Source: Candidatus Binatia bacterium
GTDB lineage: Bacteria > Desulfobacterota > Binatia > UBA9968
Reading direction: 5' to 3'
Assembly (NCBI GenBank): GCA_041484845.1
Contig: JBGPIK010000001.1
Coordinates: 529-64,528, forward strand
DNA length: 64,000 bases
The translations under genes were made by a program, and so were the position numbers. Below, in pieces: positions 1 through 5,213 of the stretch (position 1 is the first letter of the stretch; each line of letters opens with the position of its first letter). The notes under the pieces are model-generated. The model saw nothing but the letters and a program-made list of their open reading frames with translations. It was not told the origin of the DNA and ran no database searches.

Positions 1-405
1 TACCAAAAAGCGAAGGAGCTGCTCATCTGCGCTGACAGCGGCGGAAGCAACGGCTATCGGTCGCACCTGTGGAAACGAGAACTACAGAAACTGGCCAGTC
101 AGCAAAGGCTACGGATCACGGTGTGCCACTTCCCACCCGGGACGAGCAAGTGGAACAAGATCGAGCATCGCCTGTTTTCATACATCAGCATGAACTGGCG
201 TGGGCGTCCGCTGACGGATTACCGGACCGTAGTGAATTTGATTGCGTCCACGACGACGAAAACCGGCCTCACGGTCAAAGTTCGGCTTGATAAAAGATTG
301 TATCAGCGCGGCATCAAGATTTCTCAGGACGAGTTGGAGAAGATCGCGCTCCGACCTCACAATTTCCATGGCGAGTGGAATTACACGATCAGGCCCGCTA
401 GCTAA
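1..405 (+). CDS. ISAzo13-family DDE transposase, C-terminal part (5' end outside window)
   Basis: Frame 1 is open from base 1 (..LICADSGGSNGYRSHLWKRELQKLASQQRLRITVCHFPPGTSKWNKIEHRLFSYISMNW..). The HFPPGTSKWNKIEHRLF block is the hallmark C-terminal motif of ISAzo13-type transposases. Stop TAA at 403-405. Confidence 0.85.
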   Translation, partial: YQKAKELLICADSGGSNGYRSHLWKRELQKLASQQRLRITVCHFPPGTSKWNKIEHRLFSYISMNWRGRPLTDYRTVVNLIASTTTKTGLTVKVRLDKRLYQRGIKISQDELEKIALRPHNFHGEWNYTIRPAS

Positions 406-440
406 GAAACTGTCCATATTATTTTGTCACAAGGTCTAAC
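1..440 (+). mobile_element. Right end of an ISAzo13-family insertion sequence (outer boundary approximate)
   Basis: The transposase ORF ends at 405 and a truncated methyltransferase frame begins near 441, so the IS terminus lies in 406-440. The terminal repeat cannot be defined without the left end. Confidence 0.6.
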
Positions 441-644
441 GGCATCGACACGGCTCCATTTCCGGACGAGTTGGTTGAACGATGTCTCGCTCTTGGATGC
501 CCGCCGCACGGGCTAGTTTTGGATCCATTCGCCGGCGCAGGCACAACCGTTAGAGTTGCTTTAGCGAGCGGACGTTCTGCCTGCGGGATCGAATTGAATC
601 CAACATTCTGTGACTTTATGGTTATGGAGCTGAACCGACTTTAA
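441..644 (+). pseudogene. 3' fragment of an N4/N6 DNA methyltransferase (motif I at the C-terminus); 5' part displaced by the IS
   Basis: Translation is GIDTAPFPDELVERCLALGCPPHGLVLDPFAGAGTTVRVALASGRSACGIELNPTFCDFMVMELNRL*. FP.EL..VLDPFxGxGTT..GR..GIE is the AdoMet-binding end of beta-class N6_N4 methylases. There is no start codon and the frame only opens at 402. Confidence 0.7.
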
Positions 645-1706
645 ATGTATTTAACCTTGGCCAAGATTCAGAATTCTCTTTCCTATCTGGGAAATCTTCA
701 CCCGTTCTTCGGCATCACGTATCTAGTTTGTAAGAAAGGGCAACTGCCGATCGGGAGGAGCAAGCATTTTCCAATAAATAGAGAAGAAGCGGACTTCTTG
801 ACCAAATACTATAAACCGGACGTTACGTCCAAATTCTACTTTCAACCTTTTAGGACTTCCGCGGGCCGTTGGCTCTCACCCAAATATCCATCTTCTGGTT
901 CCCAAAGCACCCGGACAAGAGGCGACTTTGAAAAGGCTTTCATTCACGAGAAGAATACTGATTTGTGGGGCTGGTCCAGGGATTATATAAAAATATTAAA
1001 AGCCAAACTCGCGCGCGACAATACGAAATCGATCCCAGGCTTTTGGCTGGCTGTATGGTTGTTCCGAGAGAAAAACTGGCCGAACAAGACCAACCCAAAA
1101 ACTATCATAGACTCCCTTCTGAGCGAGTTCTCCATCAATGAGGAAGAACGCAGGGAACTGTTTGACCTAAGCGTGCCCGACTCCGCACTAGACCGTTTAC
1201 TAGATGAGAAACCCGGTACCAGCAGAGAGTTGTTGACCATCATTGGGCGACCTCCTGACGCGCTTCCAGAAGTTGGGGGGACTTTACGTTATCTGGAGCT
1301 AGTTGGGATCGGTCCCACGAAATCACTAAAATTCACCCCTGGAGATCGATTAACGGTAATCACAGGAGATAACGGGCTAGGAAAGACTTTCATTCTTGAG
1401 TGTGCTTGGTGGAGTCTCACGGGAACCTGGGCGGGACCGCAAGCGTTTCCTATTAGCCAAGGACAAGAGAAGATCGATCCAAAAATCACCTTTGAGATCT
1501 CAGCGGGGCAAACCGCCTCACAAAAGAAGACCATACGTTATAATTGGGAAACTCAACGCTGGCCAGAAGCGAAAGACAGACCAACAATTCCTGGCCTCAT
1601 TGTATATGCGAGAGTGGATGGCTCCTTCGCGGTTTGGGATCCGGTGCGGCATTTACAACTTGAGAGTCCGCTCGACGGACGGAATCATCTTCTGGTCTTT
1701 TCATGA
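645..1706 (+). CDS. ABC/SMC-like AAA ATPase, N-terminal half (unknown ~210-aa N-domain plus Walker A); ends at an in-frame TGA, probable pseudogene half
   Basis: The ATG directly abuts the methylase stop (TAAATG, 642-647). Walker A is GDNGLGKT. The same frame continues after the single TGA at 1704-1706. Confidence 0.75.
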   Translation: MYLTLAKIQNSLSYLGNLHPFFGITYLVCKKGQLPIGRSKHFPINREEADFLTKYYKPDVTSKFYFQPFRTSAGRWLSPKYPSSGSQSTRTRGDFEKAFIHEKNTDLWGWSRDYIKILKAKLARDNTKSIPGFWLAVWLFREKNWPNKTNPKTIIDSLLSEFSINEEERRELFDLSVPDSALDRLLDEKPGTSRELLTIIGRPPDALPEVGGTLRYLELVGIGPTKSLKFTPGDRLTVITGDNGLGKTFILECAWWSLTGTWAGPQAFPISQGQEKIDPKITFEISAGQTASQKKTIRYNWETQRWPEAKDRPTIPGLIVYARVDGSFAVWDPVRHLQLESPLDGRNHLLVFS

Positions 1707-1724
1707 GACGCGGTCCTAGATGGT

Positions 1725-2525
1725 TTGAATGGAAAGATCGAAGGACTTTTGCGAGATTGGGTCAAGTGGCAACATAGCCCTGATCAATCGACTTTTGATA
1801 CTTTCCGGGCTGTCATGAGGCGGTTGTCCCCTCCTGACATGTCACCGTTGGAACCGGGGGAGCCGATGCGCTTGCCTCGTGAATCCAAGGAGATTCCAAC
1901 GCTGCAGCATCACTATGGGCCTGTGCCATTTCCTCATGAGTCCGCAGGGGTGCGCCGGATAATTACCCTGTCATACCTCATCGTTTGGGCATGGAATGAG
2001 CATCGGATTTATTCGGCGCTCGCGAAAAAAGCGCCACAAAAAAAACTCGTCATTTTGATAGATGAAACAGAGGCCCATCTCCATCCGAAATGGCAACGAG
2101 TGATCTTACCATCTTTGTTAGATGTGACGACCATTCTCTCGAAAGAAATTCAACCCCAGATGATAGTGACTACCCATTCCCCGCTTGTGCTGGCCTCCTT
2201 GGAAACAGTCTTCTCTCAGGCCGAGGACAAACTATACCATCTCCATTTGGCAGATTCCGGAGACGTTGAATTCAAGGACTTGCCGTTCATTCGGTTGGGT
2301 AGCGTTGATGACTGGCTTACATCTGCTGTTTTCGAACTTAAGCAACCGCGTTCGCGTGAGGCAGAAGACGCGGTGGAAACCGCTAAAAACTTGATGGCAC
2401 AAACTGATCCAGAAAAACAAGACATCGTATCAGTGACTGATCAGCTCCGGAGAACTTTACCAGCCGAGGATGTTTTCTGGCATCGGTGGGCCTATTTTGT
2501 TGAAAGGAAAGGCATAAGCATCTGA
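1725..2525 (+). CDS. Same AAA ATPase, C-terminal half (Walker B, D-loop/H-loop); frame is open from 1707
   Basis: KKLVILIDETEAHLHPKWQ (Walker B) and MIVTTHSPLVLASL (H-loop region). It shares the reading frame of 645-1706, separated by only one TGA. Confidence 0.75.
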   Translation: MNGKIEGLLRDWVKWQHSPDQSTFDTFRAVMRRLSPPDMSPLEPGEPMRLPRESKEIPTLQHHYGPVPFPHESAGVRRIITLSYLIVWAWNEHRIYSALAKKAPQKKLVILIDETEAHLHPKWQRVILPSLLDVTTILSKEIQPQMIVTTHSPLVLASLETVFSQAEDKLYHLHLADSGDVEFKDLPFIRLGSVDDWLTSAVFELKQPRSREAEDAVETAKNLMAQTDPEKQDIVSVTDQLRRTLPAEDVFWHRWAYFVERKGISI

Positions 2526-2698
2526 TTCCAGTATCTCTGCAACCGGAACCTTCCTTCTTTGAGCAGCGCGTCAGACGACCTGGGCAATCCTTTTTGCGGT
2601 CGAATCCAAGACCAACAAGTCACCAATTTAAAAAAAAGAATTATTGGCGGGAGTGCCTTCCTGAACTGAGACTGGCATACTCTGAAATCTGCGTTTAC

Positions 2699-2925
2699 CT
2701 TAACGTTGCATAAAAATCCCAGGTCGATGGCCGCGAGAGGCCGATCTGGCGGGGGCTTGAGCCAGATCAGGAGCCTCCAGCTGGACTTCACCAAAAGTGA
2801 ACTCTAGGGAGAGGTAGAAAGTTAAGCGAAAGTATCATCACAAATATTTCAACATTCATAGGTATTTCGGTGCTCGCGGTTACGTGGATTGAACTGTCAG
2901 AACCCGAATTTTATGCAACGTTAAG
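2699..2925. mobile_element. MITE-like non-autonomous element, 227 bp, 17-bp perfect terminal inverted repeats, 6-bp target duplication GTTTAC
   Basis: TIR-L CTTAACGTTGCATAAAA at 2699-2715 and TIR-R TTTTATGCAACGTTAAG at 2909-2925. Direct repeats GTTTAC at 2693-2698 and 2926-2931. No ORF inside. Confidence 0.75.
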
Positions 2926-2958
2926 GTTTACTCTGCCTGTTGGGTTCCACATGGGACT

Positions 2959-3354
2959 GTGGATCACTTCTGGTCGAAGACTGCGCGGCCCGACCTTGCT
3001 TACGAATGGAGCAACTACCGCTTCGCGGCTGAAAAACTCAACAATTACAAAGGGGAAAATGCAGACGTTTTGGACCCTTTTAGCATCCAAGCCGGCTGGT
3101 TTATTTTGAACTTTGACAATTTCTTTGTTGAAGCTAACCAAGGTCTCTTGCGATCACTCGAAGACGCAGTGAAGAAGACGATTTCCGTTTTGAGGCTGAA
3201 CGCTGATGATGCTCTGGTGAATTGGCGGTTTAGCATAGTCAGAGACTACGCTACGAACGATCTTAGCTTCGGATTCCTCGAGCGAAGGTATCCATTCATA
3301 GCGTTTGAGCTTCAACGCCAGAATCTGACGGAACAGATAAAGCAGAATTTCTAA
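2959..3354 (+). CDS. C-terminal ORF of the interrupted HNH nuclease (as given in the ORF track)
   Basis: DHFWSK..AYEWSNYRF..LNNYKG matches the H-N-N core of TIGR02646-type HNH proteins. It is not an independent gene. Confidence 0.6.
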   Translation: MDHFWSKTARPDLAYEWSNYRFAAEKLNNYKGENADVLDPFSIQAGWFILNFDNFFVEANQGLLRSLEDAVKKTISVLRLNADDALVNWRFSIVRDYATNDLSFGFLERRYPFIAFELQRQNLTEQIKQNF

Positions 3355-3591: not shown

Positions 3592-4002
3592 TCACCGAGA
3601 AGCAAACGGGTTGCGGATTCTCAGTTTTCGGTCGATGACCTGTCTATCCTGCAGGTCTTCGGAATACAGGATTTTGCATCCAGCGCGGAGCGCCGAGGCC
3701 AGAATCGTCGCGTCATAAAACGAAAATCCATAACGCTCGGCTATTTCAATACCCAGGTCGTGGGTCTCGATGGTTAGTGGCTCAATCTCACAGACGGCGC
3801 GGATGGGAGCAAGGACATCTCTGATTTCGCTCCACGACATGCCTAACTTGCGCGAGGCGACTGCGGCAAACTCATTAAGAACCTGAACGCTGATAACGCC
3901 GCCATTCGCGATGAGTTCCTCAACCCGGTCAGCCTTGGACGCATCTTCCGAGAGCAAATAGAGCAGGATATTCGTGTCGAAAAACGTCTCAGCGGCGGGC
4001 AT
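3592..4002 (-). CDS. vapC: PIN-domain toxin VapC
   Basis: MPAAETFFDTNILLYLL..VLNEF..FYDATILASA is a PIN-domain pattern. It overlaps the upstream antitoxin by 14 nt. An alternative start lies at 4020. Confidence 0.85.
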   Translation of the reverse strand: MPAAETFFDTNILLYLLSEDASKADRVEELIANGGVISVQVLNEFAAVASRKLGMSWSEIRDVLAPIRAVCEIEPLTIETHDLGIEIAERYGFSFYDATILASALRAGCKILYSEDLQDRQVIDRKLRIRNPFASR

Positions 4003-4222
4003 TGGCCTCAACGCGATCAAACTTGAAATCCGCGGGCAGGCGCCCGCGGTACTTTCTTAAACGCGCAAGCAGCTCTCGAGCGCCGGGCATCTTCTTGATC
4101 TCGAAAAGACGCGCTCCCGCAACATCAATCTCGATGTTGTCACCTTCCTTGAGGCCGAGCGCTTCCACTACCGACACGGGTAAGCGGACAGCCAGGCTAT
4201 TTCCCCATTTACAAACCTGCAT
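3989..4222 (-). CDS. vapB: AbrB/SpoVT-MazE-type antitoxin VapB
   Basis: MQVCKWGNSLAVRLPVSVVEALGLKEGD is the swapped-hairpin AbrB-like N-terminus. The internal ATG at 4222 was chosen over the ORF-track start at 4279. Confidence 0.8.
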   Translation of the reverse strand: MQVCKWGNSLAVRLPVSVVEALGLKEGDNIEIDVAGARLFEIKKMPGARELLARLRKYRGRLPADFKFDRVEANARR

Positions 4223-4351
4223 ATTTACCTCTGAGTCGAAAGATATACATAAGCTCGCTATATATCTACCACGCTCCAATCAACCGCGCAAGATGGAGTA
4301 TCTATAACGAGGCAAGACAATGTACCAGGAGTCTTTTCTCGACACGCCGGG

Positions 4352-5086
4352 TCAGCGTAGCGAGGCGGGTTCCCTTGGGGCCTGCTGAATCGAACTCCCG
4401 GTTGCTTCAGATCCAGGGCGTTTGAACAGCACAGCGTAAGTCCGACCGCGCCACGTCTCCGGCCCTCGAATCAACTGAAAGCCGGCGGCCGTCACTTCTT
4501 TCAATACGGTTCCCTTTGGCGTGCCATGTCCGCCGTGACGTTCCGCTGTCTCCGGCCGACCGATCCAGTTCATGATCCCGCCAGGCTCGAAGTCGATGAT
4601 CACCAGCCGGCCACCGGGACGGAGCGCGCGCAAGATGTCCGCGTTGATTGCCGCCGGGTCCGTCAGGTGATGGTAGACGAAGCGACTGAAGAGCGCATCA
4701 CAGCAAGCCTCGGGCAGGTTCGTCCGTGAGACCGCACCTTCGATCACTGTAACGTTCGAGAGCTTCGCTTCTGTGGCGGCTTGTCGAATGTCGGCGAGAC
4801 GTGCGGCATCGAGCTCAGTCGCATACACATGACCTGACGGGCCGACACGGCGCGCCAGCGCTATGGCGAACGTTCCATCGCCTGCGCCCAAGTCGGCAAC
4901 GCGCGTCCCGGGTTGTAACTCGAGCCACGCGGCGAGGCGCTCCACCTCGTCCGCCGTCGTGCCGTGAATGAACGGCAGATACGGCAGACTGGCGACCGCC
5001 AGAACGCCGACGGCCGCGAGCGCCAACAGCCCAACAACGATCCACTGTCTTAATCGACTCGGCATGGTTTGCTCCTGGGATGACAA
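4352..5086 (-). CDS. Class I SAM-dependent methyltransferase with N-terminal membrane anchor
   Basis: VADLGAGDGTF (motif I) and LRPGGRLVIIDF (motif post-II/III); hydrophobic segment WIVVGLLALAAVGVLAVA. Visibly more GC-rich than its neighbours. Confidence 0.8.
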   Translation of the reverse strand: MSSQEQTMPSRLRQWIVVGLLALAAVGVLAVASLPYLPFIHGTTADEVERLAAWLELQPGTRVADLGAGDGTFAIALARRVGPSGHVYATELDAARLADIRQAATEAKLSNVTVIEGAVSRTNLPEACCDALFSRFVYHHLTDPAAINADILRALRPGGRLVIIDFEPGGIMNWIGRPETAERHGGHGTPKGTVLKEVTAAGFQLIRGPETWRGRTYAVLFKRPGSEATGSSIQQAPREPASLR

Positions 5087-5213
5087 GGTTTCTACACCTC
5101 ACTTGGCATAGACTGCTTAAAGAAACAAAAGCAAAACAAAGGGCAAAACAAAAGGGCTCAAATCTCTTTTAGCTCGTGAAGCACCACAGTGTCGGGTTGA
5201 GTAAGAAACTCTC

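Follow-up and report, generated by a model that had tools for sequence, protein, structure and literature searches.

A recently inactivated methylase–Septu operon in a Candidatus Binatia genome

Did a DNA methylase, an ABC-type ATPase and an HNH nuclease, whose broken genes lie side by side in a Candidatus Binatia bacterium, once act as a single defence system, and what would such a system have sensed? The genes lie at the start of a 64,000-nucleotide stretch of DNA (contig JBGPIK010000001.1 of assembly GCA_041484845.1, positions 529 to 64,528 of the forward strand), which is referred to here as the window and numbered from its first letter. The ATPase and the nuclease are PtuA and PtuB of the Septu defence system, and the methylase is a conserved partner of a long form of PtuA. 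The reading that we favour, at a probability of about three in four, is that the region preserves, in a form inactivated only recently, a conserved operon that moves horizontally and encodes the methylase, long-form PtuA and PtuB; the logic of restriction–modification (R-M) would be combined in it with a Septu effector. What Septu senses is debated, with the level of ATP, the phage tail fibre and tRNA targeting all having been proposed; a large methylase-wired subtype with a sensor-like domain of its own, if real, would tie Septu to self/non-self discrimination through DNA modification.

A methylase gene as the partner of long-form ptuA

The ATPase gene is a long-form ptuA pseudogene (645..2525, forward strand) of 626 codons, which runs from an ATG at 645 to a TGA at 2523–2525 and is interrupted by a single internal TGA. 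It encodes an ABC/OLD-type ATPase with Walker A, Walker B and H-loop, and its motifs comprise GDNGLGKT (Walker A), ILIDETEAHLHP, ILIDE (Walker B) and TTHSP. With the stop repaired, the protein matches the PADLOC PtuA model PDLC00270 over positions 1–626 of 627 (E = 7e-234). The repaired HNH protein, whose gene overlaps ptuA downstream, matches the PtuB model PDLC00348 over positions 1–194 of 198 (E = 7e-64), and the proteins of an intact allele on metagenome contig Ga0326597_10052364 (L084) give the same PADLOC result. The C-terminal two thirds of the ATPase score above the cut-off for Pfam AAA_15, AAA_21 and AAA_23; Pfam detects no family in ATPase residues 1–215 and no HNH domain in PtuB. 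In a Foldseek comparison with the PDB, the AlphaFold model of a 79%-identical PtuA homologue (P0001; predicted local distance difference test (pLDDT) of 84.6) has only PtuA among its top 50 listed matches, including E. coli Septu (PDB entry 8EEA, E = 3.9e-15) and PtuA of the retrons Ec78 and Ec83. Sequence profile matches of PtuA in the PDB begin with PtuA, followed by AriA, and the best PDB sequence match of PtuB is the PtuB of retron Ec78, at a weak E of 0.0076.

The pair is Septu PtuA/PtuB, of a divergent subfamily that is already modelled by PADLOC, and because the long form lies inside the PADLOC PtuA model, surveys already count it as ordinary Septu. The initial annotation had reached Septu by way of an AAA_15/21-type ATPase and a TIGR02646-type HNH protein. 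The PADLOC, Pfam AAA and fold matches bear out the system and the ATPase; the TIGR02646 label does not hold, with PtuB scoring 20 bits against a cut-off of 52.15 and no HNH family detected by Pfam. Membership of the retron-linked branch (Septu type II, or type I-A retrons) was rejected, since the NCBIfam retron equivalogs score far below their cut-offs (71.8 versus 500 bits for PtuA and 28.2 versus 150 bits for PtuB) and the upstream gene is a methylase. In the place of a retron reverse transcriptase (RT) and non-coding RNA (ncRNA), a methylase gene stands in the relatives and an insertion sequence (IS) with a methylase remnant stands here, no search aimed at RT or ncRNA having been made.

Directly upstream of ptuA lies the 3′ remnant of a beta-class DNA methyltransferase gene (436..644, forward strand), the TAA of which (642–644) abuts the ptuA ATG at 645. 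The remnant consists of the last 69 codons, 238–306, and TAA of a 306-codon gene and aligns to residues 238–306 of the L084 methylase. It matches PF01555 (positions 163–217 of 221, E = 1.4e-15) and the PADLOC Type II methylase model MTase_II (PDLC03387). The window copy keeps the S-adenosylmethionine-binding motif I (DPFAGAGTT) and has neither the catalytic motif IV (SPPY) nor the middle of the protein. Both motifs are present in intact relatives; the L084 methylase scores 128.8 bits with PF01555, and the intact methylase matches PDLC03387 over nearly its full length (E = 4.7e-75).

The association of the three genes was assessed in relatives collected as the best 80 matches of each of two pattern-seeded scans, near-duplicates included, so that proportions are approximate. 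The genome scan, with one genome per species, yielded 80 loci from more than 15 phyla, including Acidobacteriota, Cyanobacteriota, Chloroflexota, Planctomycetota, Verrucomicrobiota, Spirochaetota, Bacillota and several proteobacterial classes; the second scan covered metagenomes. PtuA proteins with an N-terminal extension of about 210 amino acids are termed long-form, and those that align only from residue ~213 short-form. A homologous methylase gene adjoins long-form ptuA in about 110 of 125 assessable loci (~88%), on the same strand and at −13 to +35 nt from the ATPase start, and adjoins short-form ptuA in none of 12. By scan, a homologous methylase gene on the same strand ends at −10 to +35 nt relative to the start of PtuA in 55 of the 66 long-form loci in genomes, and the metagenome scan has 55 long-form loci with a methylase versus one without. 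No methylase match was found beside the short-form genes of the genome scan anywhere in the roughly 14 kb fetched per locus.

Pairwise distances of the methylase correlate with those of the ATPase core (r = 0.78 across 95 intact loci), which argues that the module is inherited as a unit. Of the four parts of the module, the methylase has diverged least, with a mean distance of 0.40 versus 0.51–0.64. The nuclease arm is thus genetically coupled to the methylase by strand, a tight gap, co-divergence and confinement to the long form, and the methylase is a genuine conserved partner of long-form PtuA, not a chance neighbour. The initial annotation had suspected such a coupling, foreign to classical Septu, from the window alone; the intact syntenic triplets of the relatives confirm it. 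Over the loci of both scans, all three genes are intact in 94, the methylase is absent with PtuA and PtuB (PtuAB) intact in 10 and truncated with PtuAB intact in 4, PtuA or PtuB is broken beside an intact methylase in about 8, and several genes are broken in 2.

All 111 full-length methylases carry SPPY or SPPF as motif IV. An S-P-P-Y/F motif IV is a signature of N4-cytosine rather than N6-adenine enzymes, and the PDB sequence matches listed for the methylase include DNA cytosine-N4 methyltransferases; its product is probably N4-methylcytosine (m4C). In five alphaproteobacterial loci (L045, L047, L050, L051 and L054), the upstream methylase is far more divergent (~185 bits versus 320–370 at similar PtuA divergence) and lies 27–35 nt from ptuA, with the motif of the PtuA N-terminal domain still of the common QxxNTQ-T class; the methylase may have been replaced or have changed specificity there. 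In independent cases, the last 35 or ~105 methylase codons remain upstream of apparently intact PtuA and PtuB genes (L096/L097 at ~5100–5150 and L126 at 737–1066), and in L126 an opposite-strand 251-codon open reading frame (ORF) without search match overlaps the place of the missing methylase 5′ part.

Three recent lesions and their order

Each gene of the window copy carries a lesion of its own. The methylase gene is cut by the right end of an ISAzo13-family IS (1..435, forward strand), which extends beyond the window start. Positions 1–402 encode the last 132 residues of an ISAzo13-type DDE transposase (PF07592, DDE_Tnp_ISAZ013, 201.7 bits, profile positions 177–308 of 308); the 3′ part of the transposase gene occupies 1–405, with its stop at 403–405, and 406–435 are the terminal non-coding part of the element, whose left part lies outside the window. 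Homology to the methylase begins at 438 in L001, a relative with an intact methylase–PtuA–PtuB triplet (75.7% identity in this alignment; PtuA 79% identical), and at 436 in L084 (96.3%). The IS/target junction is placed at 435|436, where the alignment with the intact methylase genes starts. The interruption by an ISAzo13 element that had been noted for this gene stands, with the remnant starting at 436 and not at 441. The IS has removed 237 codons from the 5′ end; these were not found elsewhere in the 64-kb window, and no further copy of the IS end was found in the window or the fetched loci.

The lesion in ptuA is a premature TGA at codon 354 (1704..1706, forward strand). The codon reads AGA (Arg) in L084 and L001, so the stop is a single A-to-T change, at a position where Arg is nearly invariant in the family alignment. 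A recoded codon was rejected, because the relatives read AGA here and the same gene itself ends with TGA.

The ptuB gene is split into a 5′ part (2522..2698, forward strand; codons 1–59, matching L001 PtuB residues 1–59 in tblastn) and a 3′ part (2932..3354, forward strand; codons 60–199 and TAA, matching L001 residues 56–200). The 5′ part reads LIPVSLQPEP… as far as codon 59, where the insert follows, and the 3′ part holds the HNH core DHFW…WSN…NNYKG and a helical C-terminal part. The initial annotation had been exact in giving the in-frame TGA and the GDNGLGKT, ILIDETEAHLHP and TTHSP motifs of the ATPase and an insertion of 227 bp in the HNH gene; the latter lies at 2699..2925 and can now be described as resembling a miniature inverted-repeat transposable element (MITE). 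It is short, contains no long ORF and no transposase, and ends in perfect 17-nt inverted repeats (CTTAACGTTGCATAAAA…TTTTATGCAACGTTAAG; 22 nt at 95% if extended). The terminal repeat CTTAACGTTGCATAAAA occurs in the window at these two sites only (0 expected by chance). A 6-bp direct repeat, GTTTAC, flanks the insert at 2693–2698 and 2926–2931 as a target-site duplication, and the site is empty in L001 and L084. Deletion of 233 bp restores a 199-codon frame that ends with the TAA at 3352–3354. No second copy of the element was found in the 64-kb window or the fetched loci.

The start of ptuB is a CTG (2522–2524) that overlaps the ptuA stop by 4 nt as CTGA. The same CTG is present in L084 (3822–3824), and all 121 other loci begin with ATG, TTG or GTG, making CTG the start in 1 of 122. 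It was rejected as a fourth lesion, since the otherwise intact L084 shares it, which makes it a trait of the lineage. The CTG may be a working start of a non-canonical kind, coupled to the translation of ptuA, or it may reflect an earlier attenuation of the nuclease.

Errors of sequencing or assembly were rejected as a source of the lesions. Contig JBGQFA010000185.1 of GCA_041496665.1 is 99.86% identical to the window over 11.3 kb without gaps and shares the TGA as well as the insert. The TGA is also present in the JGI 3300052992 contig (L003; 100% identity over 2.4 kb), which corresponds to window positions 406–2810, beginning at the IS end and stopping inside the insert, of which it includes the first 112 bp. 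The contigs of both these assemblies stop at window position 406. Breaks there and inside the insert are the usual assembly signature of repeated elements, which suggests that the IS and the 227-bp insert are multi-copy repeats in the L003 community.

The L084 allele, at 96.3% DNA identity, shows what was lost: it has a methylase of 306 codons, a PtuA of 626 codons with AGA at 354 and a PtuB of 200 codons, with neither the IS nor the MITE. The ratio of non-synonymous to synonymous substitution rates (dN/dS; Nei–Gojobori) between the window and L084 is 0.12 for PtuA, 0.19 for the methylase remnant and 0.48 for PtuB, the last resting on small counts (18.5 non-synonymous and 10.5 synonymous changes). 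The window PtuA keeps 138 of 138 family-invariant residues and PtuB 41 of 42 conserved columns, and with L001 as outgroup amino-acid changes are not in excess on the window branch (5 non-synonymous and 13 synonymous, versus 5 and 11). Together, the low dN/dS, the retained invariant residues and the absence of a branch excess indicate that the lesions are recent and that purifying selection acted on the genes until shortly before they arose. What remains is a pseudogene remnant, with a stop in ptuA and a split ptuB where Septu has intact genes, and the system is dead in this genome: a recent loss of a defence system through three independent hits, two of them from mobile elements.

The initial annotation had further proposed that the IS destroyed the protective methylase first and that knock-outs of PtuA and PtuB were then selected against self-restriction. 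This order is the logical expectation for a true R-M system, the three lesions are all recent and occur together, and neutral decay over a short time would hardly seem to call for two hits in the nuclease arm. The data put the lesions in no order, however: they occur together in each assembly that spans them, L084 as the one other allele has none of them, and no intermediate allele was found. The relatives show both routes, with a lost or broken methylase beside intact PtuAB at 14 loci versus the reverse at about 8; decay can thus start from either arm, and loss of the methylase appears to be survivable with the frames of the nuclease arm open. The unusual CTG start and the highest dN/dS of the three genes, both in ptuB and shared by the intact allele, also speak against the proposed order, and the nuclease arm may have been weakening before the three lesions arose. 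In R-M systems, loss of the nuclease first is the safer and commoner path. We regard a methylase-first order as possible but, on balance, doubtful.

The N-terminal domain and the wiring of PtuAB

The N-terminal domain of long-form PtuA (645..1283, forward strand), with its conserved motif YPSSGSQSTRTRG, is confidently modelled by AlphaFold2 over residues 1–213 (pLDDT 91.7, predicted template modelling score 0.88). That a domain of about 210 residues sets this ATPase apart from classical Septu, as first suggested from the window, is borne out: the domain is absent from the structurally characterised PtuA proteins and belongs to the methylase-linked form only. Its best sequence profile match in the PDB is insignificant (E = 0.8), and a profile search for the domain in other protein contexts returned only PtuA or truncated and split PtuA fragments, such as L164 and L166, the latter a PtuA cut by a resolvase/Rep insertion. 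In L164 (4150–7513), two ORFs separated by 70 nt encode the N-terminal domain (200 residues) and the ATPase (403 residues), with an intact methylase on one side and the HNH gene on the other; this may be a form that is naturally split or one more copy in decay.

In methylase-less Anabaena/Dolichospermum loci, the N-terminal domain retains a fraction of only 0.59–0.69 of its invariant residues and has lost the YPSSGSQSTRTRG motif, with the ATPase core at ~0.90; methylase-bearing proteins of equal core divergence retain 0.88–0.91 of the N-terminal invariants. Because the invariants of the domain fall where the methylase is gone, the comparison points to a putative functional tie between the two. 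The methylase and the N-terminal domain define a distinct and widespread Septu subtype.

Several known systems share parts of this architecture. ATP-dependent R-M systems with a separate methylase, for example of the CglI/NgoAVII type, likewise encode the methylase and an NTPase-driven nuclease arm as separate polypeptides, and the gene order and tight coupling found here are typical of R-M operons; unlike them, the present system has an ABC/OLD-type ATPase and a PtuB-type HNH protein in place of helicase/PLD or McrBC-type components, and its sequence-specific, methylation-sensitive cleavage is a prediction. Type I Septu is the stand-alone PtuA/PtuB pair, reportedly described by Doron in 2018. 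Its characterised members (PDB entries 8EE4, 8EE7 and 8EEA) correspond to our pair in the ABC/OLD-type ATPase gene followed by an overlapping HNH gene, in the PtuA fold, in Walker A, Walker B, H-loop and HNH core, and in end-to-end PADLOC matches. The locus differs from them in the additional ~210-residue N-terminal domain of PtuA, the upstream beta-class methylase, a PtuB below the TIGR02646 cut-off and its state as a triple pseudogene; a self-sufficient two-gene system is not what most long-form loci present, since a methylase precedes the pair. Type I-A retrons (Septu type II; Ec78/Eco7 and Ec83) also join the effector pair to an upstream sensor gene in a three-component operon (PMC8565338, PMC12819146). 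Here, a methyltransferase takes the place of the RT, and the addition to PtuA is an N-terminal domain rather than loops that bind multicopy single-stranded DNA (msDNA). The Hma system of helicase, 5-methylcytosine (m5C) methylase and ATPase is often found near Septu type I (PMC8565338); like the present operon, it is a candidate defence operon that includes a methylase and that surveys associate with Septu. Its three genes form an operon of their own, with a helicase and a methylase of the C5 type, unlike the helicase-free coupling of an N6_N4 beta-class methylase to ptuA. A methylase-coupled PtuAB was not found described in the accessible full-text literature, which covers Septu type I, the retron-linked type II and Hma and leaves REBASE and subscription journals outside its scope. 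Current tools would annotate such a locus as Septu type I and, beside it, a seemingly orphan Type II methylase, which misstates both.

In the mechanism that we propose, the methylase would mark host DNA, the N-terminal domain would link the ATPase–HNH complex to the modification state of DNA, and unmodified incoming DNA would license the nuclease. The Septu effector would in this way come under restriction–modification logic, much as type I-A retrons place the same effector under an RT/msDNA sensor; the co-option of PtuAB by that separate sensor is a precedent (PMC8565338, PMC12819146). A more specific version is tentative, and we give it somewhat less than an even chance: the N-terminal domain may be an unrecognised reader of DNA modification that, with an m4C methylase, makes the Septu complex a new class of ATP-dependent R-M system and a third sensor wiring of PtuAB, after the stand-alone and retron-coupled forms.

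Several observations weigh against R-M logic in this system. Characterised PtuAB of Septu and retrons act largely through abortive cleavage of tRNA-Tyr or ATP-regulated DNA nicking, not through site-specific restriction (PMC13096335, PMC12819146), and a link between methylation and PtuAB activity is predicted from sequence. The N-terminal domain bears no likeness to known readers of DNA or methyl marks in its PDB fold matches, none of which falls below E = 1.8; the best are winged-helix regulators, at an insignificant E of ~2 and a TM-score of 0.24. Beyond what shared ancestry explains, the domain co-varies only weakly with the methylase (partial r = 0.12, partial Mantel), and three methylase-less loci (L012, L013 and L015) keep the domain fully conserved. 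PtuA and PtuB are both intact in the 14 relatives in which the methylase is absent or truncated. A classical restriction enzyme is not expected to tolerate such a loss, unless an isospecific methylase is encoded at another locus or the nuclease has been silenced by inconspicuous missense changes.

The methylase could instead be a guarded or sequestering partner, a serious rival explanation to which we give a rather low probability. The N-terminal domain would then bind the methylase or sense its activity, and phages that block methylation or deplete S-adenosylmethionine (SAM), by means of anti-restriction proteins or SAM hydrolases, would release PtuAB to kill the cell by cleavage of tRNA or DNA. 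Known PtuAB are abortive and restrained by partners, the RT/msDNA of type I-A retrons sequestering them (PMC12819146, PMC12640716), and E. coli Septu cleaves tRNA-Tyr (PMC13096335). The high conservation of the methylase fits a conserved protein partner as well as a conserved specificity, and the tight gene overlap fits the formation of a complex, although the interaction of PtuA with the methylase is itself a prediction. Loss of restraint should be toxic, yet long-form PtuAB is intact without an adjacent methylase in 10–14 loci, and the fully conserved N-terminal domains of the three methylase-less loci named above count against a guarded methylase as well. The 14 loci with intact PtuAB and no intact methylase sit awkwardly with both models, R-M and guarding. 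A merely loose linkage, in which a plain Type II or orphan methylase and a plain Septu pair share defence islands without being functionally coupled, is highly improbable: defence genes do cluster, PADLOC handles the parts separately as MTase_II and PtuA/PtuB, and some long-form loci have no methylase, but an orthologous methylase lies on the same strand at −13 to +35 nt in about 110 loci from more than 15 phyla and never beside short-form PtuA, its distances co-vary with those of the ATPase core and the N-terminal domain decays where it is gone.

Genomic setting

Homology between the window and L084 ends at ~3451, and the Septu module lies in different neighbourhoods in the two genomes, which is consistent with a mobile defence module. 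Just downstream of ptuB, the window encodes on the reverse strand (3592–4279) an overlapping VapBC-like pair of a PIN-domain toxin (PF01850) and a MazE/AbrB-type antitoxin (PF04014). In L084, a stand-alone gene for a phage-type HNH_3 endonuclease (441–917, reverse strand) is located just upstream of the intact operon. A class I SAM-dependent methyltransferase is encoded further downstream in the window (4352–5086, reverse strand; Methyltransf_11, Methyltransf_23 and Methyltransf_25 in the precomputed annotation of L002); it is an enzyme of another kind than the lost DNA methylase and not an obvious substitute for it.

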